Of a stretch of DNA of 22,240 bases, positions 4,119-18,337 are shown one piece after another. Both the position numbers and the translations under genes were made by a program. The number at the start of each line of letters is the position of its first letter. Position 1 is the first letter of the stretch. The stretch comes from Phycisphaerae bacterium. GTDB lineage: Bacteria; Planctomycetota; Phycisphaerae; SM23-33. Location: the NCBI GenBank assembly GCA_021108335.1, contig JAIORC010000021.1:1-22240 (forward strand), given 5' to 3'. The notes beneath the pieces were generated by a model, which was not told the origin of the DNA, did not search any database, and saw nothing but the letters and a program-made list of their open reading frames with translations.

Positions 4119-4218
4119 TTCGATACAAACAATTTCAGACAGTTTCTACAAATTGCCCTGGTACTCCGTCCCAGAGACAATAATGGGTGCCCCCCAGGGG
4201 GCGGTAAAAAAACGCGTC

Positions 4219-4254
4219 GGGTGCCGTGGCGGGAAGCGAAGCTTTCAGCCACGA
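4219..4254 (-). repeat. REP-like 36-nt core repeat, copy A1 in inverted orientation.
   Basis: It is the reverse complement of the consensus TCGTGGCTGAAAGCTTCGCTTCCCGCCACGGCACCC and identical to copy A2. Confidence 0.7.
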
Positions 4255-4292
4255 AAGAGAGACACACCATGGCAGATGGTATGTTTGGGTGG

Positions 4293-4320
4293 CATGGTCC
4301 CCTGGGGACCATGTGTTTTT
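4293..4320 (+). terminator. Candidate intrinsic terminator: 10-bp GC-rich stem followed by a T tract.
   Basis: catggtcccc-t-ggggaccatg is followed by tgttttt. It lies ~175 nt downstream of the stop of the 823-aa gene and inside the repeat element. Confidence 0.35.
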
Positions 4321-4544
4321 CGTCCCGCGAACCAGGTGCGAGGGTGGCACAGGTTTGCAACCTGTGCCGCGGTGGCCTGGGAAGGCCACCGCGCTAGGGT
4401 ACAAAGTGAGGCCATGAGGGATGGCGTAGAAATTGCGAATCGATCTTTCATGGCTACCCCGCAAAAAACGCGGGGTTTCCATGCCACCCGACATCGTGGG
4501 AAATTGTCGGGTGCCCCCCAAGGGGCTTTCTCGCAATAGTTACG

Positions 4545-4580
4545 TCGTGGCTGAAAGCTTCGCTTCCCGCCACGGCACCC
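4545..4580 (+). repeat. REP-like 36-nt core repeat, copy A2.
   Basis: tcgtggctgaaagcttcgcttcccgccacggcaccc. Its ends CGTGGC...GCCACG are themselves inverted, which is the palindromic character of REP elements. Confidence 0.7.
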
Positions 4581-4600
4581 ATTATTTTTTACGGGACAGA

Positions 4601-5875
4601 TTACCAGGAAGCCGCTACAAATTGCTCCAGCTCAGTTACCAGGCGGCTGGCGTGGTCGGCCAGAAGTTCCAGGCCTCCACGTTTGGGGCGGAAAGCGTTA
4701 TAGAAAAGAAATGCGGATTCGACCTCGTAGCCGCCCTCGTCATACGCCGAGGCTGTGGGCACATACCCGACTACGCCATTGGCCAAACCTACCGTGTAAA
4801 CTTTTTGCCACGTACTCGCGCGAACTATCTCCGTAAAAGTGGAAAAGATTTCCGCGTTGACACCCAGCAATACAACACCGCCAATCGCCAGGGCGAATAA
4901 TTCGATGTCTACATAATCGGCACCGTTGTTTTGCACGTACTCCGTCATCGACTCGCGCCAGGTCTCAACCGCGAGGCGATAATTTTCGCCCCAATCCGGA
5001 TCGTTGGCAAAGGAGAGGTATTGATCCGCATGGCTATTGATCTGTTCGACACTCCAGACATCCAGGGGCAGCGGAACGGTTTTTGTCAAGACTACCGGCG
5101 ACGCATTTTTTGCCGGCGCGCCTGTCGGTGCCTGTAGCAGTTTGTCTATAACGGACTCCGCCAATTGCCGGCTCCAATCCTTCATCTGCTCGAAATCGAC
5201 GCCGACTGTCGGCGGATTTATATTGCCGCACGCGCCGACGCACACCAGCGCCATCGGTTTACCGGGCAATTGTTCAGACAGAGCAATTGCGGCTTGCCCC
5301 GGGTAATCGGCGCTGGTCTGGTAGTCCTTCATGCAGACCGCGTGCATGGCATAATTAAGCACGACCGCTTTGAACGTATCATCAGTTCGCCGCCATCCAA
5401 TCGCCCCGACGCGCGGATCTGCATGGGCCGAAGCCCCCCGCCGAACTATTGCCAATTCATACAGGCCCTCGACGGTTACTGGCGTGCAGTTTTCGGTATT
5501 CGCCAGGGCATCGGCGGCAGCGGCTTGCATCCACTGTTTTAACTGCTCGACGTAGCCGGCATCGTATCGGCCACACCCGGTCAGGTGAACCACCACCGGG
5601 CCGGAGTGGGTATGCGTAGCCGAAACCATCACACGCGACGACGGCAAGCCCAGTTCCCGCTCGGCCCAGCGCCTGAAGTCATCGACGAAGCTCCGCTCGA
5701 AACCGAGCAAATCCGCGTGAAGCCACAATACGCGTTCGTCGCCTTCTTCCAGGTACAAAGCCCGGCAATACAACGGGTCGTGCACACCCGTCGAGGGGTG
5801 CGTGCGGTCGGCAAAGCCCGTTATGTCGCTGCCCGGCTTGGGTGTAATGTCTATCTGCGACGTTCCAACAATCAT
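4601..5875 (-). CDS. Hydrolase with a neutral/alkaline ceramidase N-terminal-like domain, 424 aa.
   Basis: ATG at 5875 overlaps the upstream TGA as ATGA. The N-terminal block MIVGTSQIDITPKPGSDITGFADR...HDPLYCRALYLEEGDERVLWLHADL resembles the start of the neutral ceramidase family (GxxxxDITP...G, hydroxy/acidic ladder). No signal peptide is visible. The functional call is made from memory of family motifs and has moderate confidence only. Confidence 0.6.
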   Translation of the reverse strand: MIVGTSQIDITPKPGSDITGFADRTHPSTGVHDPLYCRALYLEEGDERVLWLHADLLGFERSFVDDFRRWAERELGLPSSRVMVSATHTHSGPVVVHLTGCGRYDAGYVEQLKQWMQAAAADALANTENCTPVTVEGLYELAIVRRGASAHADPRVGAIGWRRTDDTFKAVVLNYAMHAVCMKDYQTSADYPGQAAIALSEQLPGKPMALVCVGACGNINPPTVGVDFEQMKDWSRQLAESVIDKLLQAPTGAPAKNASPVVLTKTVPLPLDVWSVEQINSHADQYLSFANDPDWGENYRLAVETWRESMTEYVQNNGADYVDIELFALAIGGVVLLGVNAEIFSTFTEIVRASTWQKVYTVGLANGVVGYVPTASAYDEGGYEVESAFLFYNAFRPKRGGLELLADHASRLVTELEQFVAASW

Positions 5876-7137
5876 GCAGTTGCTCCGACAGTTTTTTCCG
5901 CCGGTTCAGCCAGGCTGTCAAGGTTTGCGTGAACCTTTTCGAATGCGCGGATAATATCGTCCATATCCTTTTGCTCGCCAAGCAACAGACTTTGATACAT
6001 CCAGGCGCCCTGTTCGGTGCAAATCGTCTCGCAATTCGGGCAGTTCGTCCTGGTGTAGTCCAAATCTGGATGGTTATTTTTATATCCCGTGTAAGGGCCG
6101 AAGGCAAGATTTGTGAACACCGGTTGGCGGTACAGCGGCAGAACATAGCCCGCGCAGGCGGGAATGCCCTCCGCCTCGATTGCCGCAAGGAATACCTCAC
6201 GCGATACGCCAAGCTCCGCCGGGTTCAGGCGGAACAGGAACAGATGGCAGCCATGCCGGGTGCAATCGTCGCCGCGCTTTTGCAGGTAGATTCCGGACAG
6301 TTTCGACAGCCGCTCGACAAGATATTTCGCGTTCCGGTCGCGCCGCGCAGCCTGCTCGTCAAACCGGTCGAACTGGGCGTTGAGTATCGCGCCCTGGAAC
6401 TCGCCAAGACGATAATTCCCGCTGATAATGTGGTGCTCGTACCACTGGCCGTCTTCCGCGCGGCCACAATTGTGGATAGATCGGCATTCCCCGGCCAGGT
6501 CGTCGTCGCTGGTGATAACGATGCCGCCCTCGCCGCTGGTGAAGTTCTTGCTGGACTGGAACGAGAACGAACCCATGTGCCCGAGCGAGCCGACGCGCCG
6601 GCCTTTATATTCGGCCCCGTGTGCATGGGCGGAGTCCTCGATAACCGTAAGCCCGTGGCGATTGGCGATGTCCATGATCGCGTCCATGTCAGCCGGCAGC
6701 CCGCCGACGTGTACCGGAATTATCGCTTTGGTCCGATCCGTAATCGCCGCCTCGATGGCTTTGGGGTCGATGTTGAATGTCTCCAGGTCGATGTCGACAA
6801 ATACCGGCGTGGCGTTGGCTTCAACGACAGCCGTGGCGGTCGCGAGGAAAGTGTACGGCGGGACGATAACCTCATCGCCGGCTTCGATTCCCGCAGCCAG
6901 CAGCGCGATACGCAGCGAAACCGTGCCGTTTACCACGGCGATACCGTGGGCGGCGTGATGGTAATCCGCGAATCGCCGTTCAAACTTCGCCACTTCATCG
7001 CCACTCAGCCGGCCCCATTGGCCACTGTTCAAAACACGGGACAAGGCGGTTTGCTCTTCCTTACCGAAAATCGGCCAACTCGGAAAAGGTTCCGTCCGTA
7101 CAGGGGAACCGCCGTTAATTGCTAACTCTTCAGACAT
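5872..7137 (-). CDS. DegT/DnrJ/EryC1/StrS-family PLP-dependent aminotransferase, 421 aa.
   Basis: ATG at 7137 is preceded (minus sense) by aaggag 9 nt upstream. It carries the PLP-lysine block SFSFQSSKNFTSGEGG and a typical N-terminal NGG-P motif (AINGGSPVR). It has a 4-nt stop/start overlap with the downstream ceramidase-like gene, which points to an operon. Confidence 0.85.
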   Translation of the reverse strand: MSEELAINGGSPVRTEPFPSWPIFGKEEQTALSRVLNSGQWGRLSGDEVAKFERRFADYHHAAHGIAVVNGTVSLRIALLAAGIEAGDEVIVPPYTFLATATAVVEANATPVFVDIDLETFNIDPKAIEAAITDRTKAIIPVHVGGLPADMDAIMDIANRHGLTVIEDSAHAHGAEYKGRRVGSLGHMGSFSFQSSKNFTSGEGGIVITSDDDLAGECRSIHNCGRAEDGQWYEHHIISGNYRLGEFQGAILNAQFDRFDEQAARRDRNAKYLVERLSKLSGIYLQKRGDDCTRHGCHLFLFRLNPAELGVSREVFLAAIEAEGIPACAGYVLPLYRQPVFTNLAFGPYTGYKNNHPDLDYTRTNCPNCETICTEQGAWMYQSLLLGEQKDMDDIIRAFEKVHANLDSLAEPAEKTVGATA

Positions 7138-7401
7138 CTGCTACAGCTCCTTTACGCCTGGCTAAGTCCAGGTAACTTCTCGAATATATATATTGTCGCG
7201 AAAACGCTCACTTGTTGCATATGCGTTCCATTCTTATCATATCACAGTTTGTGGCCGTTCCAAGAATAAAATCAATTTGAGGCATTTTTTTATCATTACC
7301 GGCGATTCGCGCTGAAATAGCCGGAATTATGTGATAATAATCGCTTTGTCGGCCCGGTAAGGGCAACTGGGGTTCCTGATCGGAATATTTTCAAGCGGTA
7401 C
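7138..7401. promoter_or_regulatory. AT-rich divergent intergenic region. It probably holds the promoters of the aminotransferase operon and the ROK regulator. TTATCA-type motifs recur in it.
   Basis: About 40% GC against ~57% in the surrounding DNA. ttatcatatcaca at 7234-7246, tatcatta at 7291-7298 and the inverted copy tgtgataataatc at 7330-7342 occur in the same region. A run atatatatat sits at 7186-7195. Confidence 0.4.
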
Positions 7402-8634
7402 TTGTCAGGTGGGAAGATATCTGATAAAGTACCAGATATGGAACTTATGCAAAACCAACCCGGCAAATTGAATGAACAAACCCGCAAGCGTAACGTGAAT
7501 CGTTATGCGATACTTCGCATGCTTCATTTTGAGGAGACGTTACGCCGCGCGGAGCTGAGCCGTGAACTGAAAATCCGTAAGTCCAGCGTAACAAACATCA
7601 TAGCCGAATTGATCGACAACGGCGTGGTAGTCGCCAATAATCCGGATAAACTCCGCAGCAGCCTGAGCCTCAACACGGAAACGTACCACGTGCTCGTCGC
7701 GAGTATCTGCCCCAGCGAAATATTTTTCGCCCGCGTCCACCTCGACGGCTCCATCCAGAATATGCACGGCCTGGCCTTTGATCCGCATACCAGCCAGCCG
7801 GAGCAGATACTGGAAATGATCGCCGACGGTTTTCGGGAAGACATCCGGCGGGCCGACGGTATCGTAATGGGCCTGGGCGTAGCCGATCCGGGCATTGTTG
7901 ATCCGGAGGCGGGCGTCAGCCACTTTGCGGCGAACCTTCCGCACTGGAAAAACATCCCCGTCCGCCAGACGCTCGAATCGAAGCTCGGCAGGCCTGTGCA
8001 TGTCAACAGCGACATCCGCTGCCAGCTATGGGCCAACGCCTGGTTCAGCCGCTATATCAAGCGATATCGCAACATGCTGTACGTCGGCATTCTTGACGGG
8101 CTTGCCGCCGCGTCGATTATTCACGGCCAGATGGTCGTCGGCAACAGTTATTCGGCTGGCGAGTTCGGGCACATTTCCGCCGGTAACGAGATGCGGCCTT
8201 GTGCCTGCGGCAAGACGGACTGCCTGGAAACCTATTGCAGCGTCGGGGCGATTTTGGATGAGATCAAGCGTGTTCAGCCCGGCTTGGAGAAGATTTCTTC
8301 AATATCGGATGTTGCGAAAATCGCCCGCGAAGACCGCGTGGTTCGCAACGTTTTGGACAGAATCGTTCGCCGGCTTGCCGGTACGCTCAGCCCGATAGTC
8401 GCAGCCCTGGATCCCCAGGCGGTGATTATCGGCAGCGACGACATGGAGTTTTCCGCAATATTCGGGCAGTTTTTGCACAAGAATCTGCAAGCCGAGCTTG
8501 CGGGGCTGGATTCCGGCAACGTGGACATTCTCACCGGCGAGCCTGCCGACACCGCCACCATCAGGGGAATCGCCGGAATGGTAATCGAGCAATGCTTCCA
8601 TAACGGCGAACTGCAACTGCAATCCTGCGAATAG
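7402..8634 (+). CDS. ROK-family transcriptional regulator (NagC/Mlc/XylR type): N-terminal winged HTH fused to a ROK sugar-kinase-like domain.
   Basis: HTH block RYAILRMLHFEETLRRAELSRELKIRKSSVTNIIAELIDNGVV. The ROK zinc motif CACGKTDCLETYCS is present. The ORF finder start is TTG at 7402. The in-frame ATG codons at 7438 and 7447 are more likely true starts. Confidence 0.85.
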   Translation: MSGGKISDKVPDMELMQNQPGKLNEQTRKRNVNRYAILRMLHFEETLRRAELSRELKIRKSSVTNIIAELIDNGVVVANNPDKLRSSLSLNTETYHVLVASICPSEIFFARVHLDGSIQNMHGLAFDPHTSQPEQILEMIADGFREDIRRADGIVMGLGVADPGIVDPEAGVSHFAANLPHWKNIPVRQTLESKLGRPVHVNSDIRCQLWANAWFSRYIKRYRNMLYVGILDGLAAASIIHGQMVVGNSYSAGEFGHISAGNEMRPCACGKTDCLETYCSVGAILDEIKRVQPGLEKISSISDVAKIAREDRVVRNVLDRIVRRLAGTLSPIVAALDPQAVIIGSDDMEFSAIFGQFLHKNLQAELAGLDSGNVDILTGEPADTATIRGIAGMVIEQCFHNGELQLQSCE

Positions 8635-8700
8635 CCGCTGGGATACTACGAAACCATGCCGGGCGGCTCCTCCGCAAAATCGCTCTCGACGTAGCGACGG

Positions 8701-9969
8701 CTACTCCGGGGCTTTTATGGCGATGGCGGTTATGTCGTCTTTTTGTCCGCCGGGTGCGAAGTGTGTAACGGCTTGGCGGAGGTGGGAGATTATTTCCTGG
8801 GCTGATTGGCTGCGGTGCTTGCGGAGCATGGCGTTCATTCGTTCGATGCCGAACTCTTCACCGTCGGCGTTGGCGGCTTCGAATATGCCGTCCGTGGTTA
8901 TCACGGCGAAGTCGCCGGGGTCGAAGTCGAACGTGCATGTTTCCGTGAAGTCGGCGTCGGGCAATATGCCCAGCGGCACGGCTGTGGAGGAAACTTCGTC
9001 GAGCCTGTCTTCGCTTTGCTTATAGAACATCAGCGGGCCATGGCCGGCAGAGGCGTAGGTGAGCTTGCGGGCTTCGGGGTCCAGAATGCCCAGGAAGCAT
9101 GTAACGAAGCTGTCGTCGGGCAGGTCTTCGACCAGCAGGTGGTTAGCGGTTTCCATGATGTGGGATACCGAACGCGAATCGGCTGTGGACAGGTGTGCGC
9201 TGGCCCGGAGCATCGCGCGGGTCTCGGCGATTACCAAGGCAGGCCCAATGCCGTGGCCGGTCGCGTCGGCTACCACGAACGCCCAATGGCCGTTGGGCAG
9301 GGGGATAAAGTCGAACGTATCGCCACCGGTTTCGTCGGCAGGGTCGGAAAGCCCGGCGATGTCGAAGCCCTCGATTTCCGGCGGTTTTTCCGGCAGCAGG
9401 CCCCGCTGGATGTTCCGGGCAATCTCCATCGCCCGCTCCATTTCCTGCTTCTCCATGAAATGCTGAATAAGGTGCGCCCGCTGGATGACGACCCCAGCCT
9501 GCGCGCCGAGCGTTTCGGCGAGATTTATGTCGTAGTCCCGGAAGGCTCCGGACTTTTTGTTGAGCACCTGCAAAACGCCGACCAGCCCGCCGGAGTAATC
9601 CCGCAGGGGCACGGACATGATGTTCCGCGTACGAAAGCCGGTGTCCTTATCGACCTGCGGATTGAATCGCTCGTCGGCATAGGCGTCGGGCACGACGATA
9701 GTCTTACCGGTCTGGACGGTCTGCCCGCAGATGCCCTTATCGGCGGGCACGCGCAGGTCGTCCATGCCGGTGGCTATCCGGGCGACCAACTGGTTTTGCG
9801 ACTTGTCGTAGAGAAACAGCGTAGCCCGCTCGACCCGCAGCAGTTCGAGCGCGTGTTTGATAATCAGGCTCAGCAATTCGTCGAGATCGTCCGCGGCTAC
9901 CATCGCGCGGGAAATCGCCAGCAGGCTGGTGAGGTCTTTCATCGCGTTGTCATTGGCTTTGTCGGTCAT
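8701..9969 (-). CDS. GAF-domain-containing PP2C-type (SpoIIE/RsbU-like) serine phosphatase.
   Basis: The N-terminal GAF-like region (LDELLSLIIKHALELLRVERATLFLYD) is followed by the PP2C/SpoIIE signature GGDTFDFIPLPNGHWAFVVADATGHGIGPAL and the C-terminal TTDGIFEA block. The preferred start is ATG at 9969 with gagga 5 nt upstream. The longer TTG-initiated ORF to 10026 is less likely. Confidence 0.8.
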   Translation of the reverse strand: MTDKANDNAMKDLTSLLAISRAMVAADDLDELLSLIIKHALELLRVERATLFLYDKSQNQLVARIATGMDDLRVPADKGICGQTVQTGKTIVVPDAYADERFNPQVDKDTGFRTRNIMSVPLRDYSGGLVGVLQVLNKKSGAFRDYDINLAETLGAQAGVVIQRAHLIQHFMEKQEMERAMEIARNIQRGLLPEKPPEIEGFDIAGLSDPADETGGDTFDFIPLPNGHWAFVVADATGHGIGPALVIAETRAMLRASAHLSTADSRSVSHIMETANHLLVEDLPDDSFVTCFLGILDPEARKLTYASAGHGPLMFYKQSEDRLDEVSSTAVPLGILPDADFTETCTFDFDPGDFAVITTDGIFEAANADGEEFGIERMNAMLRKHRSQSAQEIISHLRQAVTHFAPGGQKDDITAIAIKAPE

Positions 9970-10125
9970 GGTGTCCTCGCCGTTGAGTATATTACGTTTG
10001 GCGTCGAGTTGCCAAGAAACATCCAATATTAAAGCATTAAAGTTTTGTGACTTTTTGAGACGATAAAGTTCATTGGTACGGATACCCTGGGGATCAATAT
10101 CGTGGTCTGAAGTAGTGGAGTAAGC

Positions 10126-10596
10126 ATGACCAAGCGAGAATTGATCGACGAAATAATGGAGTTAAATCATTCGGCGGATCCAGGGTTCCTGGCTCGGTTC
10201 GACGATATTGAACTGAATAACTATCTGGATCATCTATCTTTGTTGCAGGCTCCCCGGCTTGAGGGCGATCCGCACAGGTACGATAAATATTTCCAGGCCG
10301 AGCCGGCGGATTCGCCGTGTGCGGTAGCCGTGGCTGAGCTTCCGTGTCAAAGCGACGCGGCGATAGCGGCTGATCTGGCGACGTGGCGGGATGAAACTCC
10401 GGCAGTCCCGGCAACCCCACGCAGCCTCAGCGAAGAATGGCAGATGCGGGTGGATCGCTTCGCGGATCACCTCAAGACCCAGCCGGATGAAGTCCACACG
10501 CCGGAACTGGTACAGACCTCTGTCAAAGAATCCGCGACGTGTGTATCCAGCCGGCTGGACGAAGGCCGGGATGAAAGAGAAGGCTGGCTGTTCTAA
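10126..10596 (+). CDS. Hypothetical acidic protein of 156 aa, no family recognised.
   Basis: ATG at 10126 has ggag 7 nt upstream. It lies divergently to the phosphatase gene. Composition is acidic (D/E-rich) and there is no TM segment. Codon usage matches its neighbours. No motif support. Confidence 0.45.
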   Translation: MTKRELIDEIMELNHSADPGFLARFDDIELNNYLDHLSLLQAPRLEGDPHRYDKYFQAEPADSPCAVAVAELPCQSDAAIAADLATWRDETPAVPATPRSLSEEWQMRVDRFADHLKTQPDEVHTPELVQTSVKESATCVSSRLDEGRDEREGWLF

Positions 10597-10604
10597 GCAA
10601 CAGT

Positions 10605-10672
10605 ATCGTGGCTGTCGCTAACGCTCCCGCCACGGCACCCGCTGAGCGGTAGCAACAGCCACGATGTTTGCC
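10605..10672 (+). repeat. REP-like core copy B (10606-10640), embedded in a larger hairpin formed with a partial inverted copy, acagccacgatgtttg.
   Basis: tcgtggctgtcgctaacgctcccgccacggcaccc matches the consensus. atcgtggctgt at 10605-10615 pairs with acagccacgat at 10655-10665 as an 11-bp stem. It sits between the 156-aa ORF stop (10596) and the ankyrin gene stop (10759). Confidence 0.6.
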
Positions 10673-10758
10673 AAGCCGCCCGCCAACTACCGCGGATATG
10701 CCCCGCGCTGGCCATCGCCGTCATCGCCACCGCAGCCAACCGCCGGCTCTCAAAAATC

Positions 10759-13707
10759 TCAGTGCGTGGCCCCCGCCTTTTTGAGCAGCTTGACGATTTT
10801 CGGGCTGCCACCGCCATAACACGATTTTGCCGCCATTAACGCCGTTCTGCCACTTTTGGTCTTGGCATTTACATCGGCACCTTTGTCCAGCAGTAGTGTG
10901 ACTATTTTCATATTGCCATACCGCGATGCTGCCGCCATTAAGGCTGTACTGCCGTTTTTGTCTTTGGCGTTTACGTCGGCACCCTTGTTAAGCAACAACT
11001 TTACGGTTTTCGTATCTTTTTTCCGCGATGCCGCCACCATCAAAGCCGTTTTGCCCATTTCGGTTTTGGCGTTTACGTCGATACCCTTGCTCAGCAACAA
11101 ATTTACGACTTCTGTCTTGCCTCTCCGCGATGCCGTTATCAAGGCCGTGCCTTTTTTTGTTTTGGCGTTTATGTCGGCACCCTTGTCCAGCAACAGTTTG
11201 ACGATTTTCGTATTGCCTTTCGACGAAGCTGCCATCAAGACCGTGTAGCCACTTTTTGTTTTGGCGTTTACATCAGCACCCTTGTCAAGTAACAGTTTGA
11301 CGATTTTCGTATTGCCTTTTGACGAAGCTGCCATCAAGATCGTGTAGTCAGTTATTGTTTTGGCGTTTATGTCGGCACCCTTGTCAAGTAACAACTTTAC
11401 GACTCCCGTGTTGTTTTTCCACAATGCCACCATCAAGGGTGTATCGCCGTTTGTGTTTCCGACGTTTACGTCGGCACCCCTGTCCAATAACAACTTTACG
11501 GCTTCCATGTTGCTTTTCCGCGATGCCACCATCAAGGCCGTGTTGCCTTTTATGTCTCTGACGTTTACGTCGGCACCCCTGTCCAACAGCAGCTTGACGG
11601 TTTTTCTATGGTCACTCCGCAATGTCGTTATCAAGGCCGTGCCTTTTTGTGTTTTGGTGTTTACGTCGGCACCCTTGTCCAACAACAACTTTACGATTTT
11701 CGTATTGTTTTTCCGCGATGCCGCCATCAAGGCCGTGTAGCCACTTTTGGTTTTGGCATTCACATCTGCACCCTTGTCCAGCAACAATTTTATGATCTCC
11801 GTATTGCCCCTTCCCGATGCCGTTATCAAGGCCGTGCCCTTTTTCGTTGTGGCGTTTATATCGGCGCCTTTGTCCAGCAACAATTTTATGATTTCCGTAT
11901 TGCCCCTTCCCGATGCCGTTATCAAGGCCGTGCCCTTTTTCGTTGTGGCGTTTATATCGGCACCCTTGTCCAGCAACAATTTTATAATTTCCGTATGGTC
12001 CCCTTCCGATGCCATTATCAAGGCCGTGCCCTTTTTTGTTTTGGCGTTTATGTCGGCACCCTTGTTAAGCAACAACTTTACGACTTCCGTATGGCCTCCC
12101 TCCGCAGCCGCCATCAAGGCCATATTGCCGTTTTTGTCTTTGGCTTTTACATCGGCACCCTTGTCCAGCAGCAGTTTGACGGCCTTCGCATGGCCTCCCC
12201 CCGAAGCCTCTATTAAGGGCGTGGTGCCCCAATCAGTTTTGGCGTTTACATCGGCACCTTTGTCCAACAACAGTTTAACGATCTTCGTATGGCCTTTCAG
12301 CGAAGCCGCCATCAAGGCTGCACTTTTGGCTTTTACGTCGGCACCCTTGTCCAACAGCAGTTTGACGGTCTCTACATGGCCTCCCCCCGAAGCCGCCACC
12401 AAGGCTGTACCGCCCCAGCGAGTTTTGGCTTTTGTATCAACACCTTTGTCCAATAACAGCTTTGCGATTTTCGTATGGCCTCCCCTCGACGCATCCATCA
12501 AGGCCGTATAACCACCCTTGGTTTTAGCATTCACATCGGCGCCCTTGCTCAGCAACATTTTTACGAATTCCGTATTGCCTCCCTCCGAAGCTGCCATCAA
12601 AACCGTGTAGCCATTTTTGGTTTTGGCTTTTATATCGGCACCCTTGCCCAGCAGCAACTTTACGGTTTTAGTATTGCCTCTCAGTAATGCTGCCGCCATC
12701 AGGGCGGTGTAGCCCCCGCCATTTTTGGCGTTCACATCAGCGCCATTGTCCAGCAACAGCTTGACGATCTTCGTACGGCCACGTCGTGATGCCGACCACA
12801 AGGCCGTGTAGCCTTTTTTGTCTCTGGCGTTTACTTTGGCACCTTTGTCCAGCAACAACTTGACGATTTCCGCATTGCCTTTCCGCCATGCCACTATCAT
12901 CAAGGCCGTAGAGCCACTTTTGGTTTTGGTGTTCGCATCCGCGCCATTGTCCAGCAACAGTTTGGCGATCTTCGTACGGCCATCCTGCAATGCTTTTATC
13001 AAGACCATTTCTCCGCGTGGGTATCTGGTGTTCGCATCGGCCCCCTTGTCCAATAACAGTTTAACGATCCTTGTATGGCGTTCCCGCAATGCCTCCGTCA
13101 AGGCCCTACTTCCGAATGTTCCGAATGTGTCGGCGTTTACCTTGGCACCTTTGTCCAGCGACAGTTTGACGACTTCCGTATAGCCTCTCCTGGAAGCCCT
13201 CTCCAAAACTGTTTCGTGTCCGTATATGCTTTTGGCGTTTACGTCTGCACCCTTGTCCAGCAACAGTTTGACGATCTCCGTATTGCCTCGCCGTAATGCT
13301 ATCCACAAGATCGTCTCGTCACCTTTGCGTTTGGTATTTGCATCAGCACCTTTGTCCAGCAATAGCTTGACTGTCTTCGCATGGCCTTGCTGCACAGCTT
13401 CTATCAAGGCCGTACAGCCAGATTTGGATTTGGCTTTTGCGTCGGCACCCTTGTCCAGCAACAGCTTGACAATCTTCGCATGGCCTGTCTGCGACGCATT
13501 CATTAGGGCTGTTCTGCCATTTTCGTCTCTGGCGTTCACATCAAGCCCGGTTTGAAGGAGTTTCTTTACTTTTTCCGCATCTCGAGCCCAGATGGCCTGG
13601 CGAAGTTCTTTGGGGTCGGCTGGCTTGTTTATCCAAATGCCCACGCCGCATGCCAGAATCAGCCCCACGACGACGAGTTTGACGATGTTGCTTTTCATTC
13701 GATTCAT
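10759..13707 (-). CDS. Ankyrin-repeat protein of ~983 aa with about 28 ANK repeats and an N-terminal signal-anchor/TM helix.
   Basis: The ORF is continuous and has 33-residue repeats of the form G-TALM-AS--GH--IVKLLLDKGADVNAKTK-. The N-terminus MNRMKSNIVKLVVVGLILACGVGIW is hydrophobic. The likely start is ATG at 13707 with ggag 6 nt upstream. The longer ORF to 13794 lacks an SD. Confidence 0.85.
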   Translation of the reverse strand: MNRMKSNIVKLVVVGLILACGVGIWINKPADPKELRQAIWARDAEKVKKLLQTGLDVNARDENGRTALMNASQTGHAKIVKLLLDKGADAKAKSKSGCTALIEAVQQGHAKTVKLLLDKGADANTKRKGDETILWIALRRGNTEIVKLLLDKGADVNAKSIYGHETVLERASRRGYTEVVKLSLDKGAKVNADTFGTFGSRALTEALRERHTRIVKLLLDKGADANTRYPRGEMVLIKALQDGRTKIAKLLLDNGADANTKTKSGSTALMIVAWRKGNAEIVKLLLDKGAKVNARDKKGYTALWSASRRGRTKIVKLLLDNGADVNAKNGGGYTALMAAALLRGNTKTVKLLLGKGADIKAKTKNGYTVLMAASEGGNTEFVKMLLSKGADVNAKTKGGYTALMDASRGGHTKIAKLLLDKGVDTKAKTRWGGTALVAASGGGHVETVKLLLDKGADVKAKSAALMAASLKGHTKIVKLLLDKGADVNAKTDWGTTPLIEASGGGHAKAVKLLLDKGADVKAKDKNGNMALMAAAEGGHTEVVKLLLNKGADINAKTKKGTALIMASEGDHTEIIKLLLDKGADINATTKKGTALITASGRGNTEIIKLLLDKGADINATTKKGTALITASGRGNTEIIKLLLDKGADVNAKTKSGYTALMAASRKNNTKIVKLLLDKGADVNTKTQKGTALITTLRSDHRKTVKLLLDRGADVNVRDIKGNTALMVASRKSNMEAVKLLLDRGADVNVGNTNGDTPLMVALWKNNTGVVKLLLDKGADINAKTITDYTILMAASSKGNTKIVKLLLDKGADVNAKTKSGYTVLMAASSKGNTKIVKLLLDKGADINAKTKKGTALITASRRGKTEVVNLLLSKGIDVNAKTEMGKTALMVAASRKKDTKTVKLLLNKGADVNAKDKNGSTALMAAASRYGNMKIVTLLLDKGADVNAKTKSGRTALMAAKSCYGGGSPKIVKLLKKAGATH
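11786..12075. repeat. Three near-identical 96-bp tandem repeats inside the ankyrin CDS.
   Basis: 11786-11881 and 11882-11977 differ at ~3 positions. A third, more diverged unit follows. They encode KKGTALITASGRGNTEIIKLLLDKGADINATT twice verbatim (32-aa units). Confidence 0.75.
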
Positions 13708-13847
13708 AATCAACTCCGTAAAAATCGTGAACGTACCAAAGATGTAGGGCCGGTGATTCTGCCGAGGGCAGGCATGCCCTCGTGGTTCACCCATGCGCAG
13801 GCGGAAACACCCACCCCGTCACCGGAGAATTAACTGCTCTTGTAACA

Positions 13848-13882
13848 TCGTGGCAGAAAGCTTCGCTCCCGCCACGGCACCC
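13848..13882 (+). repeat. REP-like core copy C.
   Basis: tcgtggcagaaagcttcgctcccgccacggcaccc. It lies in the 280-bp spacer between the flotillin stop (14076) and the ankyrin start. Confidence 0.65.
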
Positions 13883-13904
13883 TGTCAAAGTAAATCGCGG
13901 GCCA

Positions 13905-14029
13905 ATTGCGCGGCGGCCAGGGATGGCCGCCGCGCGATATGCGTCTTATGCTGGGCCGGGTGCCATGCTTCTGCTTGCAGAAGCATGCTGTCTCGCATCC
14001 ATCATGGCGACCCCTGCGGTGTCGCCATG
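13905..14029. other. Cluster of three strong stem-loops in non-coding DNA.
   Basis: 13905-13938 has a 15-bp GC-rich stem gcgcggcggcca/tggccgccgcgc with loop ggga. 13964-13987 is catgcttctg-cttg-cagaagcatg. 14003-14029 is catggcgac-ccctgcggt-gtcgccatg followed by ccatgccacccaa. They could be terminator or attenuator structures for the upstream minus-strand flotillin operon, or part of the repeat element. Confidence 0.4.
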
Positions 14030-14075
14030 CCACCCAATTTGTTATTTTGCTTCGCCGGGCGGCATGCCTGGGAAA

Positions 14076-15611
14076 CTATTTTTCGCTGCCCTGATCTTTT
14101 TGGGGTTCCCCGGTTGTTTCGGCTTGTGCGTTTGCTTCCTTGGCGATTTTGCCGAGGAATTCCGGCAGTTCCAGGCCGACCTGTTTTGCCAGTTCGTGCA
14201 TCGGCGGCAAAGCGCCCATTAGACGCTGGCCGAGGTTCTTCATGCCGCCGCCCTCGCCGCCACCGTCCCAGATGAAGACCTTTTCGATCGGCAGATCCTG
14301 GATGGCCTGGGCCTGTATGGACGCGATCTGCTTGAGTTTTTCGACCACCAACAGCGAGGCTGCGCCTTTGGTGTCGCCGGTGGCGTCGATGAGGTGCTGA
14401 TAGCCCTTGGCCTTGCCGTCCAGGATGGCTTGCTCGCCCTGGCCTTCGGCGGTCATTCGGGCGATCTTTGCCTTGGCGTCGCCCTCCGCGATGAGGATTT
14501 TCTGCTCTTTCTCAGCGTCGGCGGCGATGATGACTTTGCCCTTCTCGGCTTCGGCGGGCACGATTACTTCGGCGTTGAGGCGAGCCGCTTCGCGTTGGGC
14601 GCGGGCTTCCTCTGCCTTCTTCTCAGCCATCTGCTCGGCGACGCGGACAGCGCCGGTGGCTTCCCGTGCGGCGGATTCCGACCGCTGGCGGGCGGTCTGC
14701 TCGGCGACTTCCTGGTTGGCGTTATAGGCAGCCTTTTTGGCGTTGGCGACGGTTTCGGCTTCGACGGCTTGGGCTTCCAGGCCGGCTACCTGTTGACGTT
14801 TGTCGCGTTCTGCGGTGGTTTCGCCGATGTCGGCAGTGGCGTTGGCGGCGGCGACTGCTACGCGGGTATCTCGCTGCCGCTCGGCGACGCCGGTTTTACC
14901 GGATTTTTCCTGCTCGGCGACGTCGATATTGGCTTGGTTGATCGCCTCCGCGGCGGCTTTTCGGCCCAGGGCGATGATGTACCCGGACTCGTCCTCGATG
15001 TCGCGAATGTTGACGTTGATGACCTGCAGGCCGATCTTTTCCAGTTCCAGGGAGACGGCTTCGTTGACCTTGCCCATGAACGCCTGGCGGTCGCGGTTGA
15101 TATCCTCGATTTTCATCGTGGCGATGACGGCACGCATTTGGCCGAGGATGATATCCTGTGCCTGTGCCTGTATCTGCACGCGGGAAAGCCCCAGCAGGCG
15201 GACGGCGGCGCTCTGCATGATGCCCGGCCGATTGGAGATGGCTGCGGTAACGGTCGTCGGTACGGTTACGCGGATGTTTTCCTGCGAGAGTGCGTTTGAC
15301 AGGTCAATCGGCACGACGAACGGTTCGAGGTCGAGATATTCGTACGCCTGAAACAGCGGCCATATGAACGCCGCCCCGCCGTGGACGCACTTGGCGGCAC
15401 CGCTGCCGGTCTTGCCGTAAATCACGAGAATTTTATTGGCTGGGCAGCGTTTGTACCGCTTGGCCAGGGTGATGAACAGAACGAGGATAATCACCCCGAT
15501 AATCAACGCCAGTATGAGTGCTACGGGCATTCCAGCCTCTGTTTGTGTTTCAGCGGCTCTGCGGCTGCCGGCTACCGCCAGCGGGAGGGATGACATAAGA
15601 GATTCGATCAT
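14076..15611 (-). CDS. floT: Flotillin-like SPFH/Band-7 protein (FloT/YqiK family), 511 aa.
   Basis: An N-terminal TM helix (PVALILALIIGVIILVLFITLA) is followed by an SPFH domain and a long A/E/Q-rich coiled-coil tail typical of flotillins. ATG at 15611 overlaps the NfeD stop as ATGA. aagga lies 9 nt upstream. Confidence 0.85.
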   Translation of the reverse strand: MIESLMSSLPLAVAGSRRAAETQTEAGMPVALILALIIGVIILVLFITLAKRYKRCPANKILVIYGKTGSGAAKCVHGGAAFIWPLFQAYEYLDLEPFVVPIDLSNALSQENIRVTVPTTVTAAISNRPGIMQSAAVRLLGLSRVQIQAQAQDIILGQMRAVIATMKIEDINRDRQAFMGKVNEAVSLELEKIGLQVINVNIRDIEDESGYIIALGRKAAAEAINQANIDVAEQEKSGKTGVAERQRDTRVAVAAANATADIGETTAERDKRQQVAGLEAQAVEAETVANAKKAAYNANQEVAEQTARQRSESAAREATGAVRVAEQMAEKKAEEARAQREAARLNAEVIVPAEAEKGKVIIAADAEKEQKILIAEGDAKAKIARMTAEGQGEQAILDGKAKGYQHLIDATGDTKGAASLLVVEKLKQIASIQAQAIQDLPIEKVFIWDGGGEGGGMKNLGQRLMGALPPMHELAKQVGLELPEFLGKIAKEANAQAETTGEPQKDQGSEK

Positions 15612-16288
15612 GATTGCGTTTCCTTTGCATTAGAGGTTTTTTGAAAATTTTCGGAAGATTCGGATTTTTCAATGGTTTTAACTTCTATGGTATTTGGGCT
15701 GAGCACTCGCGTAACGGTTATCGGCGTGCCTGCCGGGATTACCGCGTCCGTTGCGCCGCGGGCCTTGAAAACCTGCATCACGCCGCTGACGGTTACGCGT
15801 GCCTCGCCCATGCCGGCGGAGGGGATGTCGATATAGGCAGTGCCTTCGGTGCCCACGCAACTGGCAAGGCTCATGTTGCCGCTTTCGGTCATGCGGCGCA
15901 TCAGGTGGAAAATCATCGCTACGGCAATCATCGCCACCGCGCCCCAGGCGGTTGCCAGCGCGACGGCCCATTGTAATTCTTTGCCGCCTTGGAGGTACAT
16001 CGCCCCCGCCCAGGAAAACAGCGTGCAAAACGCCAGTATCGAGCGAACGCTCAGGAGTTTGAAGGCCGCCACCGAATCGAGGGCGTCGTGGTCGATATCG
16101 TGATCAAAATCGTGATCGATATCTCCGTGGGTGTCGTAGTCGTGCGCGTCGGCGTCGATTTCATCTTCGCCGCCGCCCAGGCCTATCAACGCGGCAATCA
16201 ACTGCCAGACAAAGAAAACGCTGAAAAATGCTGCCGCAACGTAAAACCCCTGATTGATACCGTTCAGGTTATGCCACCATTCCGCCAT
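15608..16288 (-). CDS. NfeD-family membrane protein (YuaF/YqiJ-like) and flotillin operon partner. It contains a His/Asp-rich low-complexity insert.
   Basis: Two N-terminal TM helices are followed by a C-terminal OB-fold-like beta segment (EARVTVSGVMQVFKARGATDAVIPAGTPITVTRV). The gene is translationally coupled to the flotillin gene. Its SD aaggaga lies 6 nt upstream of ATG at 16288. The segment DEIDADAHDYDTHGDIDHDFDHDIDHD is encoded at ~16075-16170. Confidence 0.8.
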   Translation of the reverse strand: MAEWWHNLNGINQGFYVAAAFFSVFFVWQLIAALIGLGGGEDEIDADAHDYDTHGDIDHDFDHDIDHDALDSVAAFKLLSVRSILAFCTLFSWAGAMYLQGGKELQWAVALATAWGAVAMIAVAMIFHLMRRMTESGNMSLASCVGTEGTAYIDIPSAGMGEARVTVSGVMQVFKARGATDAVIPAGTPITVTRVLSPNTIEVKTIEKSESSENFQKTSNAKETQS

Positions 16289-16618
16289 GTCATTCTCCTT
16301 TGTGTCGAATTACATCGGGACTCACTTGTCGGTACAATGTCCGACATTGACGGCTAGGATACTCCACGAGGCAGGCGTTGGCAAGAATCTCTCCGCGGCG
16401 AATGGGATTTTTTGCCCGATTCGGGCGTTTGGCGATATTAAGCGGGAACCGAAAAAAAACATTTTTTTCTTCTTGTTATTTTCTCTAATCGTGCAAATAA
16501 TTAAGAGTCAAGTTTGGGCGGCTGTTATGCCGATTACCGGATTTGTAATGGCGTACTTTTGGATGGCTTGGAGGGCCTCTGGGAAGAGGCAAAAAAGCTG
16601 TCGGAAGGAGGATAGGGA

Positions 16619-16801
16619 ATGCGAGGTTACAGGCCTAGTTATTTCCACGTGCGGAGCGAAGATGTTGTCGACGAGCGCATTCGTGCCAAGCAGGAGAATG
16701 TGCAGCGGTACACAGTTCGTGTCGAGCGGGGCGTACCCCTGTTCGATGTCGGAAGTCAGCAGCAGGGGCCATCGCCAGATAGTCCATTTGCAGGCCGCTG
16801 A
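16619..16801 (+). CDS. Candidate orphan small protein of 60 aa. Uncertain.
   Basis: There is a perfect SD aggagg 7 nt upstream of ATG at 16619, inside a 716-bp gap between divergent genes. I recognise no homology. Codon bias is only moderately gene-like. Confidence 0.2.
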   Translation: MRGYRPSYFHVRSEDVVDERIRAKQENVQRYTVRVERGVPLFDVGSQQQGPSPDSPFAGR

Positions 16802-16927
16802 TTTTCCGTTCGACTGTGTTTGCCGCGATTGGCGATGCCAGCGCTTCTGAATGCAAAAATGCAAGGTAGTTCCCTCCACAGGGGATAAATTGCCCGGCGT
16901 ACCGGCGATTGCGGCGGTTTTCTATAC

Positions 16928-16954
16928 TTATCATGCCGCGGCTTTGGGTATACT
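16928..16954 (+). promoter_or_regulatory. Possible sigma-70-like promoter for ispE.
   Basis: ttatca at 16928-16933 and tatact at 16949-16954 are separated by a 15-nt spacer. It lies ~50 nt upstream of the preferred ispE ATG at 17005. This is pattern-based only. Confidence 0.25.
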
Positions 16955-17004
16955 CTCTACACCGTCCGGGTAAACACTCGGCAAGTAAGGAAATTCCCAT
17001 CGTT

Positions 17005-17922
17005 ATGCCGGAAGATAACGCCGCCAATTCGATTTGCTGCACGTTACGTCCCGCTGTCGAGCGGGCGGATGACGGGCTGTTGCGGCTTTACGCTCCAGCC
17101 AAGATCAATCTGAACCTGCTGGTAGGCCCGCTGGGCGCCGACGGCTATCACCCGCTGGATTCGCTCGTAGCCAAAGTCTCGCTGTATGATTGTCTGGAAC
17201 TGCGCCTTCGGGACGACGGCAGGCTGGAGTTTTCCTGCGATGGATTCGATTGCGGGGCGGATTCGAAGAATCTCGCGATGCTGGCTGGGCAAATGCTAGC
17301 CGAGGGGCGGACTGTTCCGGGGGCGGACATTCTGCTGAAGAAGTACATTCCGCCGGGTGGCGGGCTTGGCGGCGGTTCGTCCGACGCAGCCACTGTCCTG
17401 GCTGGCCTGAATGACCTGTGGGAGCTGGGGCTGCCGGCGGACGAACTGTCACACTTGGCCGGGCGGCTGGGCAGCGACGTGCCGCTGTTTCTCGGCCCGG
17501 CGGTGGCGCGAATGACGGGTCGAGGCGAGCAATTGGCTCCGATTGACGTCTACCCTTTCCGGGCAGTGCTGATTCTGCCGGAAGTCGCTTGTGCAACCGC
17601 CGCGGTGTACAAAGCCTTCGACGCCGCCGGCTCGACCCGCATGCCGGAGCAACTGGACGTCCATCTGCTTACCAGCCCGCCGTCGCAATGGCGAGATATG
17701 CTGGTCAATCAACTTGAATCTCCGGCGATGGAATCTGCCGGCGAACTGGCTGAGTTGCGGGATGCGCTCGGAAAGGCATTGCCGTTGCCCGTCCACATGA
17801 GCGGCAGCGGCAGCACGCTGTTCGTCCTCTGCGACAACCAGGCCGAGGCGACGGACACGCTGGAGCGAATACCAAAGCCAATCCAAAGCTGCTGCCGCAT
17901 AGTGCGAATGAATTCATGGTAA
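17005..17922 (+). CDS. ispE: 4-(cytidine 5'-diphospho)-2-C-methyl-D-erythritol kinase (MEP pathway).
   Basis: The N-terminal PAKINLNLLVGPLGADGYHPL is the IspE motif. The GHMP-kinase ATP loop PPGGGLGGGSSDAATVLAGL is present. The start is moved to ATG at 17005 (MPEDNA...) because the reported 16909 start lies upstream of the putative promoter and adds a 32-aa extension with no counterpart in IspE. Confidence 0.85.
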   Translation: MPEDNAANSICCTLRPAVERADDGLLRLYAPAKINLNLLVGPLGADGYHPLDSLVAKVSLYDCLELRLRDDGRLEFSCDGFDCGADSKNLAMLAGQMLAEGRTVPGADILLKKYIPPGGGLGGGSSDAATVLAGLNDLWELGLPADELSHLAGRLGSDVPLFLGPAVARMTGRGEQLAPIDVYPFRAVLILPEVACATAAVYKAFDAAGSTRMPEQLDVHLLTSPPSQWRDMLVNQLESPAMESAGELAELRDALGKALPLPVHMSGSGSTLFVLCDNQAEATDTLERIPKPIQSCCRIVRMNSW

Positions 17923-17929
17923 TAAAGCC

Positions 17930-17970
17930 CGGTGCCGTAGTGGGAGCGCAGCGACAGCCACGATGTTTGA
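17930..17970 (-). repeat. REP-like core copy D in inverted orientation, with the adjoining CAGCCACGATGTTTG 15-mer shared with copy B.
   Basis: The reverse complement of 17930-17963 is tcgtggctgtcgctgcgctcccactacggcaccg, which matches copy B apart from ~4 substitutions and indels. It starts 8 nt after the ispE stop. The same spacer contains caaaccatgccacccaaac (18006-18024) and atgccacccagccatgatgtttg (18037-18059). Confidence 0.55.
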
Positions 17971-18224
17971 ACTTCGCGCGGGACGAACAACACATGGCTT
18001 GCAAGCAAACCATGCCACCCAAACTATTAAACTCCGCGCGGCGGTCTTCCCAGGCCGTCGCGTATCACCCACGACCGTAGGGTGGGTGCTCCCGCCCACG
18101 TTGGAACCGGGAAAAACACACGGCTCCCAGGGGATTATGCCACCCAGCCATGATGTTTGCTGGAGAAGAATTTCAAGGTAGGGCTTGACCGGAGCGGCTT
18201 AAATTGCTAAAAGGGTTCCTCCCA

Positions 18225-18298
<74 letters not shown>

Positions 18299-18303
18299 GT
18301 CGC

Positions 18304-18337
18304 AAAAAACGTTCCGGAAATCCCGGGACGTTTTTTA
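18304..18337. terminator. Bidirectional rho-independent terminator.
   Basis: Stem aacgttccgg / ccgggacgtt (10 bp including one G-U) has loop aaatc. It is flanked by aaaaaa on the 5' side and tttttt on the 3' side, so it can terminate the tRNA transcript and the convergent mannosidase transcript. Confidence 0.7.

Follow-up and report, generated by a model that had tools for sequence, protein, structure and literature searches.

Repetitive extragenic palindromes (REPs) are short (about 14–40 nt), extragenic and palindromic sequences that have a common consensus and occur in tens to hundreds of dispersed copies (PMC12306157). Most REPs fall into super-families in which an unpaired tag, either GTAG or CGTC, stands beside the stem (Di Nocera, De Gregorio & Rocco, 2013; PMC3733652). 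GTAG families occur in the Planctomycetes–Verrucomicrobia–Chlamydiae (PVC) group, in Opitutus terrae, Rhodopirellula baltica and Planctomyces, and their tag degenerates to GTRG, with GTGG in most O. terrae GTAG-20 units (PMC3733652). These units are 20–40 nt long, with stems of 5–13 bp and loops of 2–20 nt, some with self-complementary inner regions; several families may share a genome, the units form dimers, clusters and mosaic spacers, and convergent and unidirectional spacers are preferred (PMC3733652). Two inverted REPs with a short spacer can form one long hairpin, termed a REPIN, that acts as the replicating unit (Bertels & Rainey, 2011). In addition, class 3 TnpA(Y1) transposases are concentrated in Planctomycetes (and Acidobacteria) and are flanked by REP-like hairpins with a 5′ CnGA foot (Quentin et al., 2018; PMC6006769). 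Here, we analyzed a family of 35–36-nt palindromic repeats, hereafter alpha, in a 22,240-nt stretch of an uncultured Phycisphaerae bacterium (GCA_021108335.1, contig JAIORC010000021.1), hereafter the window. To our knowledge, work on REP-type repeats has dealt almost entirely with Proteobacteria, and our literature search found no paper tying them to Phycisphaerae.

A first-pass annotation had placed five alpha copies at 4219–4254 (A′), 4545–4580 (A), 10606–10640 (B), 13848–13882 (C) and 17930–17963 (D). All five were recovered, and the degenerate 35-mer pattern, which B and C match exactly, found no match in 100 shuffles of the window. The extragenic placement and the mixed orientation claimed for the copies also held: every copy lies outside the open reading frames (ORFs) with Pfam domains, and on the strand used by the annotation A, B and C are forward and A′ and D reverse. 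On that strand A reads TCGTGGCTGAAAGCTTCGCTTCCCGCCACGGCACCC and D reads TCGTGGCTGTCGCTGCGCTCCCACTACGGCACCG, and B carries the loop variant GGGAGCGTTAGCGACA. Read on the opposite strand (+ for A′ and D, − for A, B and C), alpha puts a tag first, starting GGGTGC-CGTGGC and, after the loop, ending GCCACGA. Inverted termini had been assigned to each copy; the CGTGGC/GCCACG stem was found in A, A′, B and C and is degraded in D, which has diverged by about five differences, carries the tag CGGTGC and a broken stem, and lacks a stable hairpin. Under an alpha covariance model, A′ scores 51.9 bits and D 50.6 bits.

When the copies were aligned with 40 nt of flank per side, similarity ran from TCGTGGC to GGCACC(C/G); the core spans 34–36 nt, 24 of its alignment columns are invariant, and the flanks bear no relation to one another. 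As similarity is confined to the core, alpha is a bounded unit and not a set of duplicated segments. The copies thus stand at independent loci, with the exception of A and A′, which form a perfect 36-nt inverted repeat (100% identity, 290 nt between them). This repeat runs on outward, 4157–4191 pairing with 4574–4608 at 83% identity, so that the inverted duplication spans at least 64 nt and reaches into the gene at 4601–5875, covering its last codons and its TAA stop; A itself starts 20 nt past that stop codon. Because the repeat extends into the gene end, A and A′ are not independent but represent one inverted segmental duplication, which leaves four independent alpha loci in the window. The inverted pair, previously advanced as an argument for REPs, is accordingly not a product of two insertions and does not serve that purpose. 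The two arms differ in that the left arm alone contains an extra 34-nt tag-hairpin unit.

Alpha is not alone in these spacers: the 35-mer represents one subfamily within a larger set of hairpins that carry a GGGTGS tag. About 15 elements of one plan occur in the four spacers, some ten of them besides alpha. The plan consists of an unpaired 5′ tag GGGTG(G/C), with GTGG or GTGC directly beside the stem, then the conserved base of a stem, C(A/G)TGG...CCA(Y)G, and above it a top that varies between units and is often self-complementary; the non-alpha elements start GGGTGG-CATGG, GGGTGG-CACAGG, GGGTGC-CATGC or GGGTGC-CCCC. The association was evaluated with the motif GGGTGSC, leaving out the ankyrin gene at 10759–13794 (−), since each of its 99-nt coding repeats holds GGGTGCC and inflates the raw motif count. 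Of the 14 remaining sites, 13 are intergenic, whereas intergenic DNA makes up 14% of the window (p = 6e-10). A hairpin of at least 6 bp begins within 0–2 nt after 11 of the 14 sites, against a background of 18% (p = 1.4e-6), and the other three have 5-bp stems. Counting all types, there are about 17 tagged hairpins in 31.5 kb, or about one unit per 2 kb. The ankyrin gene is itself unusual for a bacterium: its 1011-aa product consists almost entirely of ankyrin repeats (24–25 Ank stretches by Pfam), encoded by 27 tandem 99-nt units of 60–92% identity.

The units occur singly, as inverted dimers, or stacked into mosaic spacers downstream of genes. They lie in two convergent and two unidirectional spacers and in none of the three purely divergent ones, and every element adjoins the 3′ end of a gene. 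The alpha-bearing spacers are bounded by a ceramidase-like gene, a DegT gene, a 156-aa ORF, the 1011-aa ankyrin protein, a flotillin (SPFH) gene and a GHMP kinase gene. Upstream of the first of these spacers, 2–1642 and 1647–4118 (+) are tandem paralogues with 87–94% nucleotide identity at an offset of 2449 nt and without a Pfam match; the exact 823-aa product is absent from the contig index, and an ENA assembly of the same organism, described below, breaks at these genes.

The most complex arrangement is the 482-nt convergent spacer 4119–4600, a mosaic of at least eight repeat units whose overlapping ORFs have no Pfam match. Seven units form a tagged cluster at 4185–4580. Apart from A′ and A, which are a tag-outside pair, the spacer contains a small tagged hairpin GGGTGCCCCCCAGGGGGCG at 4185–4203 (+), within the 34-nt stretch unique to the left arm; an element termed beta at 4287–4321 (+), GGGTGG-CATGGTCCCC-T-GGGGACCATG-TGTTTTTC, which is terminator-like; a tagged hairpin GGGTGG-CACAGGTT-TGC-AACCTGTG-CC at 4342–4368 (+); a tagged hairpin GGGTGG-CATGG-...-CCATG at 4445–4489 (−); and a small tagged hairpin GGGTGCCCCCCAAGGGGC at 4509–4526 (+). 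The last two form a tag-inside dimer (CACCCGACA...TGTCGGGTG).

The remaining spacers hold fewer units. C and D are singletons, as are most alpha copies, and B is followed by a tag-less inverted half-copy of itself at 10644–10665 (+), which pairs with 10605–10626 in a 22-bp hairpin (−22.5 kcal/mol, z = −6.2). An independent short-read contig (L101, Logan SRR15668623) ends within B at window position 10634. A branch that the repeat induced in the assembly graph could explain this stop, though the case is not strong, because the same contig also begins inside a gene. Beyond C lie two tagged hairpins, GGGTGC-CATGCTTCTG-CTTG-CAGAAGCATG at 13958–13989 (+) and GGGTGG-CATGGCGAC-ACCGCAGGG-GTCGCCATG at 14001–14035 (−). 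Beyond D lie an element termed gamma at 17977–18020 (−), GGGTGG-CATGGTTTG-CTTG-CAAGCCATG-TGTTGTTCGTCCCGCG, and a degraded beta copy GGGTGGCATAATCCCCTGGGAGCCGTGTGTTTTTC at 18111–18145 (−), which, like D, is decayed. Gamma has the flanks of beta and a different top: both carry the same tag, stem base and 3′ flank, TGTT(T/G)TTCGTCCCGCG, around a palindromic top that reads TCCCCTGGGGA for beta and TTTGCTTGCAAG for gamma. A second, tag-less GC-rich family, delta (GCGSYGGCC-N6-GGCCRSCGC), is interleaved with the tagged elements and has three copies, at 4366–4394 (GCGGTGGCC-TGGGAA-GGCCACCGC), 13907–13936 and 18035–18062.

The same organism is present in ENA assembly ERZ26872896, in three contigs: L083 (window 2450–8622), L102 (window 8568–10762) and L082, which extends the window 9.3 kb to the right. 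The nearest other organisms share about 80% protein identity. Over 6 kb, the window and L083 share about 99.9% identity, and the differences include the repeats themselves. Within 4434–4527, the hairpin at 4445–4489 (CATGG...CCATG) is swapped in L083 for a short CCCCCAAGGGA palindrome, and the unit beside it differs by three substitutions (a separate tally gives four substitutions inside the cluster). Either strains differ at this site or the assembly path ran through another copy in the genome; both accounts imply similar units elsewhere in the genome. Outside the cluster, the rest of the 6 kb is identical except for four substitutions within 13 nt at 6241–6253, in the DegT aminotransferase gene. 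L082 carries three further tagged hairpins in its far-end spacer, about 9.3 kb past the right end of the window, and a near-identical copy of 14001–14035 lies in L082 at about position 81 (−). Positions 1–165 of L082 consist of head-to-tail units of the form hairpin-CCACCCAAYATTGRYAATTTATWCGCCATTCYTCA, in which CGCCAT can pair with ATGGCG or ATGGCGAC with GTCGCCAT, but not both at once.

Elements of the same plan were found in three of nine related Phycisphaerae contigs, namely L084 (two), L091 (two) and L100 (one), and none in L087, L092, L094, L099, L103 and L104, related contigs of 12–21 kb. The organism of L084 is also represented by L085 (GCA_030635145.1) and that of L100 by ERZ23486238, whereas a 2.4-Mb contig of ERZ21862645 is locally free of the motif. 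A strict pattern scan of the Joint Genome Institute (JGI) metagenomes matched a single contig, L091. Its alpha copy, a sixth in a different organism, is identical to B at 33 of 35 positions, and no protein of L091 exceeds 79% identity to any other in the database. Orthology of this copy with C was considered and rejected, as the neighbouring 513-aa protein is a GT2 glycosyltransferase and not flotillin; the L091 locus is orthologous to none in the window. The second L091 element is of gamma type, GGGTGG-CACGGCTTG-CTTG-CAAGCCGTG-TGTTTTTCC. In the relatives, including this element, CATGG/CCATG is changed to CACGG/CCGTG on both sides of the stem, a compensatory change. The two L084 elements read GGGTG(C/G)-CGTGGTTGC-loop-GCAACCACG-TTTTC. 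L100 1–117 contains one gamma-type element between the genes for ribosomal proteins L18 and S5, where the spacer is at least 117 nt; in L103 and L099 the same spacer is 43–55 nt and has no element. This patchy, lineage-specific distribution fits repeats that are gained and lost.

Wider searches added little. An alpha-only covariance model applied to 145 kb found no further alpha, only weak matches in L084 (E about 1e-3) and one at 14000–14037 (E = 0.075). Scanning a genome collection with CGTGGCNGN{10,14}CCGCCACGGCACC, a pattern that is too GC-rich and too loose, gave at least 81 matches; those listed were single chance matches in high-GC genomes, mostly in coding sequence. A protein database search with concatenated six-frame translations of the repeats returned 1714 word-sharing candidates, none at E ≤ 10, and was uninformative. 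In viral contigs, the general motif had four chance matches, all hairpin-less, and neither alpha nor beta/gamma had any; blastn of the 4150–4610 cluster against plasmids gave no match. Structured RNA had been named as an alternative by the first-pass annotation; in Rfam searches at the gathering threshold and at E ≤ 1, only tRNA-Ala reached its gathering score and the repeats matched nothing at E < 0.1. Two RsmW matches (E = 0.77) fall on GC hairpins, two of the three delta copies, and were treated as chance.

Taken together, the window and its relatives contain a class of bounded, tagged, palindromic and extragenic repeats that comprises several subfamilies, shows signs of gain and loss, and is patchy among relatives. 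We consider it likely, though well short of certain, that the 35–36-mer is a subfamily of REP-type repeats in this uncultured member of the Phycisphaerae (Planctomycetota), probably spread by a REP-associated tyrosine transposase (RAYT)-like Y1 enzyme. The resemblance to REPs and bacterial interspersed mosaic elements (BIMEs) noted at first pass thus stands on size, hairpin, consensus, extragenic placement, both orientations and clustering, and no longer on the inverted pair. Every REP feature that sequence itself can reveal is present, including the conserved unpaired tag beside the stem, and nothing found contradicts a REP origin.

By analogy with described systems, the units would be mobilised as single-stranded hairpins. 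A RAYT-like Y1 (HUH) transposase, with its gene elsewhere in the genome, would bind and cut the hairpin and its tag as single-stranded DNA and would in this way copy units into new intergenic sites. A unit landing in a 3′ untranslated region (UTR) would be transcribed as an RNA hairpin, and units with T-rich tails (beta and gamma types) probably also serve as terminators or 3′-end stabilisers, a secondary role that some units may have as RNA hairpins at 3′ ends.

Several observations weigh against a REP origin. The tag is GTGC or GTGG in place of GTAG. In alpha, a stem of only 6 bp carries a loop of 16–17 nt, and the DNA folds of the copies are modest (−6.6 to −10.4 kcal/mol, z = −1.3 to −3.0). 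The five alpha copies in 22 kb are accompanied by none in the adjacent 9.3 kb of L082, and the strict pattern had only one exact match in all JGI metagenomes. The hairpin swap between the two assemblies could have arisen in assembly, along a path through another copy of the repeat, and the segmental duplication of A/A′ indicates that recombination alone can also copy units. Finally, the Pfam annotation of genes in about 190 kb of fetched Phycisphaerae loci contained no Y1 transposase (PF01797) gene. RAYT-type transposase genes are usually single-copy.

The strongest competitor, which we nevertheless regard as unlikely, holds that the hairpins are mainly host RNA elements, intrinsic terminators or 3′-UTR stabilisers, that resemble one another through common selection or recombination and not through transposition. 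It accounts for the confinement of all elements to gene 3′ ends and their absence from divergent spacers. Moreover, beta (4292–4314) and gamma (18015–17992) were flagged as resembling terminators, GTTTTTC or GTTGTTC coming after their GC-rich stems, the L084 and L091 elements end in TTTTC, and the stems show G-T pairs and compensatory changes. A consistent orientation, another sign of termination, seemed to emerge for the five alpha copies but disappeared once all elements and relatives were counted: relative to the neighbouring gene, 13 are co-oriented and 9 anti-oriented (our own count, window elements plus relatives). Alpha has no T-tract and was not flagged, gamma and the degraded beta copy point in the wrong direction for a terminator, and up to seven units are stacked in one spacer. 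Elements also stand antisense upstream of tRNA-Ala (18020, 18145) and within a ribosomal-protein operon in L100. Between tRNA-Ala and a GH38 mannosidase gene, at about 18300–18336, stands a canonical, bidirectional intrinsic terminator (AAAAAACGTTCCGGAAATCCCGGGACGTTTTTT), which shows that ordinary terminators are in use in this organism. A conserved unpaired tag has no role in termination, and the patchy distribution among relatives also counts against host RNA elements. Beta and gamma may nonetheless act as terminators where their orientation fits.

A more speculative idea, which we judge doubtful, concerns the manner in which REP-type units are exchanged: the GGGTGS tag and the C(A/G)TGG stem base would form a fixed recognition socket in which the palindromic top is replaced. 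It is based on the different tops between the shared flanks of beta and gamma, on the hairpin swap between assemblies that are about 99.9% identical, and on the 34-nt unit inserted exactly at a tag. If true, it would imply active hairpin-replacing or tag-targeted insertion in Phycisphaerae by an undescribed HUH or other enzyme, a process other than ordinary REP copy-and-decay.

It is improbable that the units are primarily sites at which a nucleoid-associated or regulatory protein binds by recognising GGGTGS together with a hairpin or cruciform, in the manner of IHF and gyrase at E. coli BIMEs. The conserved tag and stem base beside a variable top do suggest sequence-specific recognition of those parts only. 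However, no candidate protein was found, the elements are absent from promoter-only spacers, and they are patchy among close relatives; protein binding is, in any case, compatible with a REP origin.

Equally poor are the prospects of the proposal that A′ and A are the ends of a 362-nt (or about 450-nt) non-autonomous miniature inverted-repeat transposable element (MITE) bounded by terminal inverted repeats of 36 nt, in which case the remaining alpha copies would be solo ends. The perfect inverted repeat around 290 nt invites this interpretation, as does the fold of the convergent spacer (about 4150–4615), which as one strand gives a single giant hairpin (−265.5 kcal/mol; z = −14.8 relative to a shuffle mean of −177) whose closing stem is perfect over 36 bp. 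Transcription of the spacer, from whichever side, would yield a long double-stranded RNA. A MITE is contradicted by ends that lack a target-site duplication (CGCGTC vs ATTATT), by the continuation of the inverted repeat outward into the stop codon of the gene, by the lack of a second composite copy in plasmids or elsewhere searched, and by an interior made of further independent repeat units known from other loci. A CRISPR (clustered regularly interspaced short palindromic repeats) array or solitary CRISPR repeats were rejected, as the copies are 3–6 kb apart, in both orientations and in different intergenic spacers, and the window has no cas-like domain.

If the repeats are REP-type, as we favour, our understanding of REPs is unchanged, but a dense GGGTGS-tagged family extends the picture of tagged REPs within the PVC group. 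For annotators, the GGGTGS motif offers an explanation of the long, hyper-structured spacers in such metagenome-assembled genomes, and the tag plus stem base provides a sequence handle with which a cognate Y1 transposase could be sought in complete genomes.

Among known systems, the hairpins associated with class 3 TnpA(Y1) transposases come from the same host phylum and are likewise REP-like and of high copy number (PMC6006769). Assignment to that class was rejected, as inspection revealed no CnGA foot beside the stems here. The repeats also resemble the REPs and BIMEs of E. coli and the REPIN–RAYT system of Pseudomonas (PMC2817692, PMC3116915), being short palindromes in 3′ UTRs or between genes, with mosaic clusters and alternating orientation. 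B and its inverted half-copy at 10644–10665 make a long hairpin, as a REPIN does; unlike REPINs, the repeats here do not as a rule form doublets around a short conserved spacer, the A′/A spacer being 290 nt. They further differ from the E. coli and Pseudomonas systems in host phylum and in that no transposase was identified here.

The closest likeness is to the GTAG superfamily, specifically to its PVC families O. terrae GTAG-17 to -20 and R. baltica GTAG-20 to -22. Both have a conserved unpaired tag beside the stem (here GGGTGG before CATGG/CACGG stems and GGGTGC before CGTGG stems), the same spacer preference, and several families that occur as singletons, dimers and clusters. Each feature set out above for the GTAG families has its counterpart in the Phycisphaerae repeats. 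In contrast, the tag here is extended to GGGTG(G/C), the GTGC of alpha is not listed in PMC3733652, the stem and loop sequences are new, and tops differ between units that share flanks. We back-translated O. terrae GTAG-19 from the peptides GTGVPPV, WHGRPAR, HGRDARAT/GRDARAT, TGGTPVP and RAGRPCH in Additional file 3 of that study (PMC3733652), which gave GTGG-CACGGGC-GTCCC-GCCCGTG, consistent in four frames; this sequence is our own inference and not a statement of its authors. Its first 9 nt are those of the L091/L100 element GGGTGG-CACGG..., with GTGGCACGG in common. The plan of the Phycisphaerae elements matches that of the published GTAG-tagged REP superfamily.

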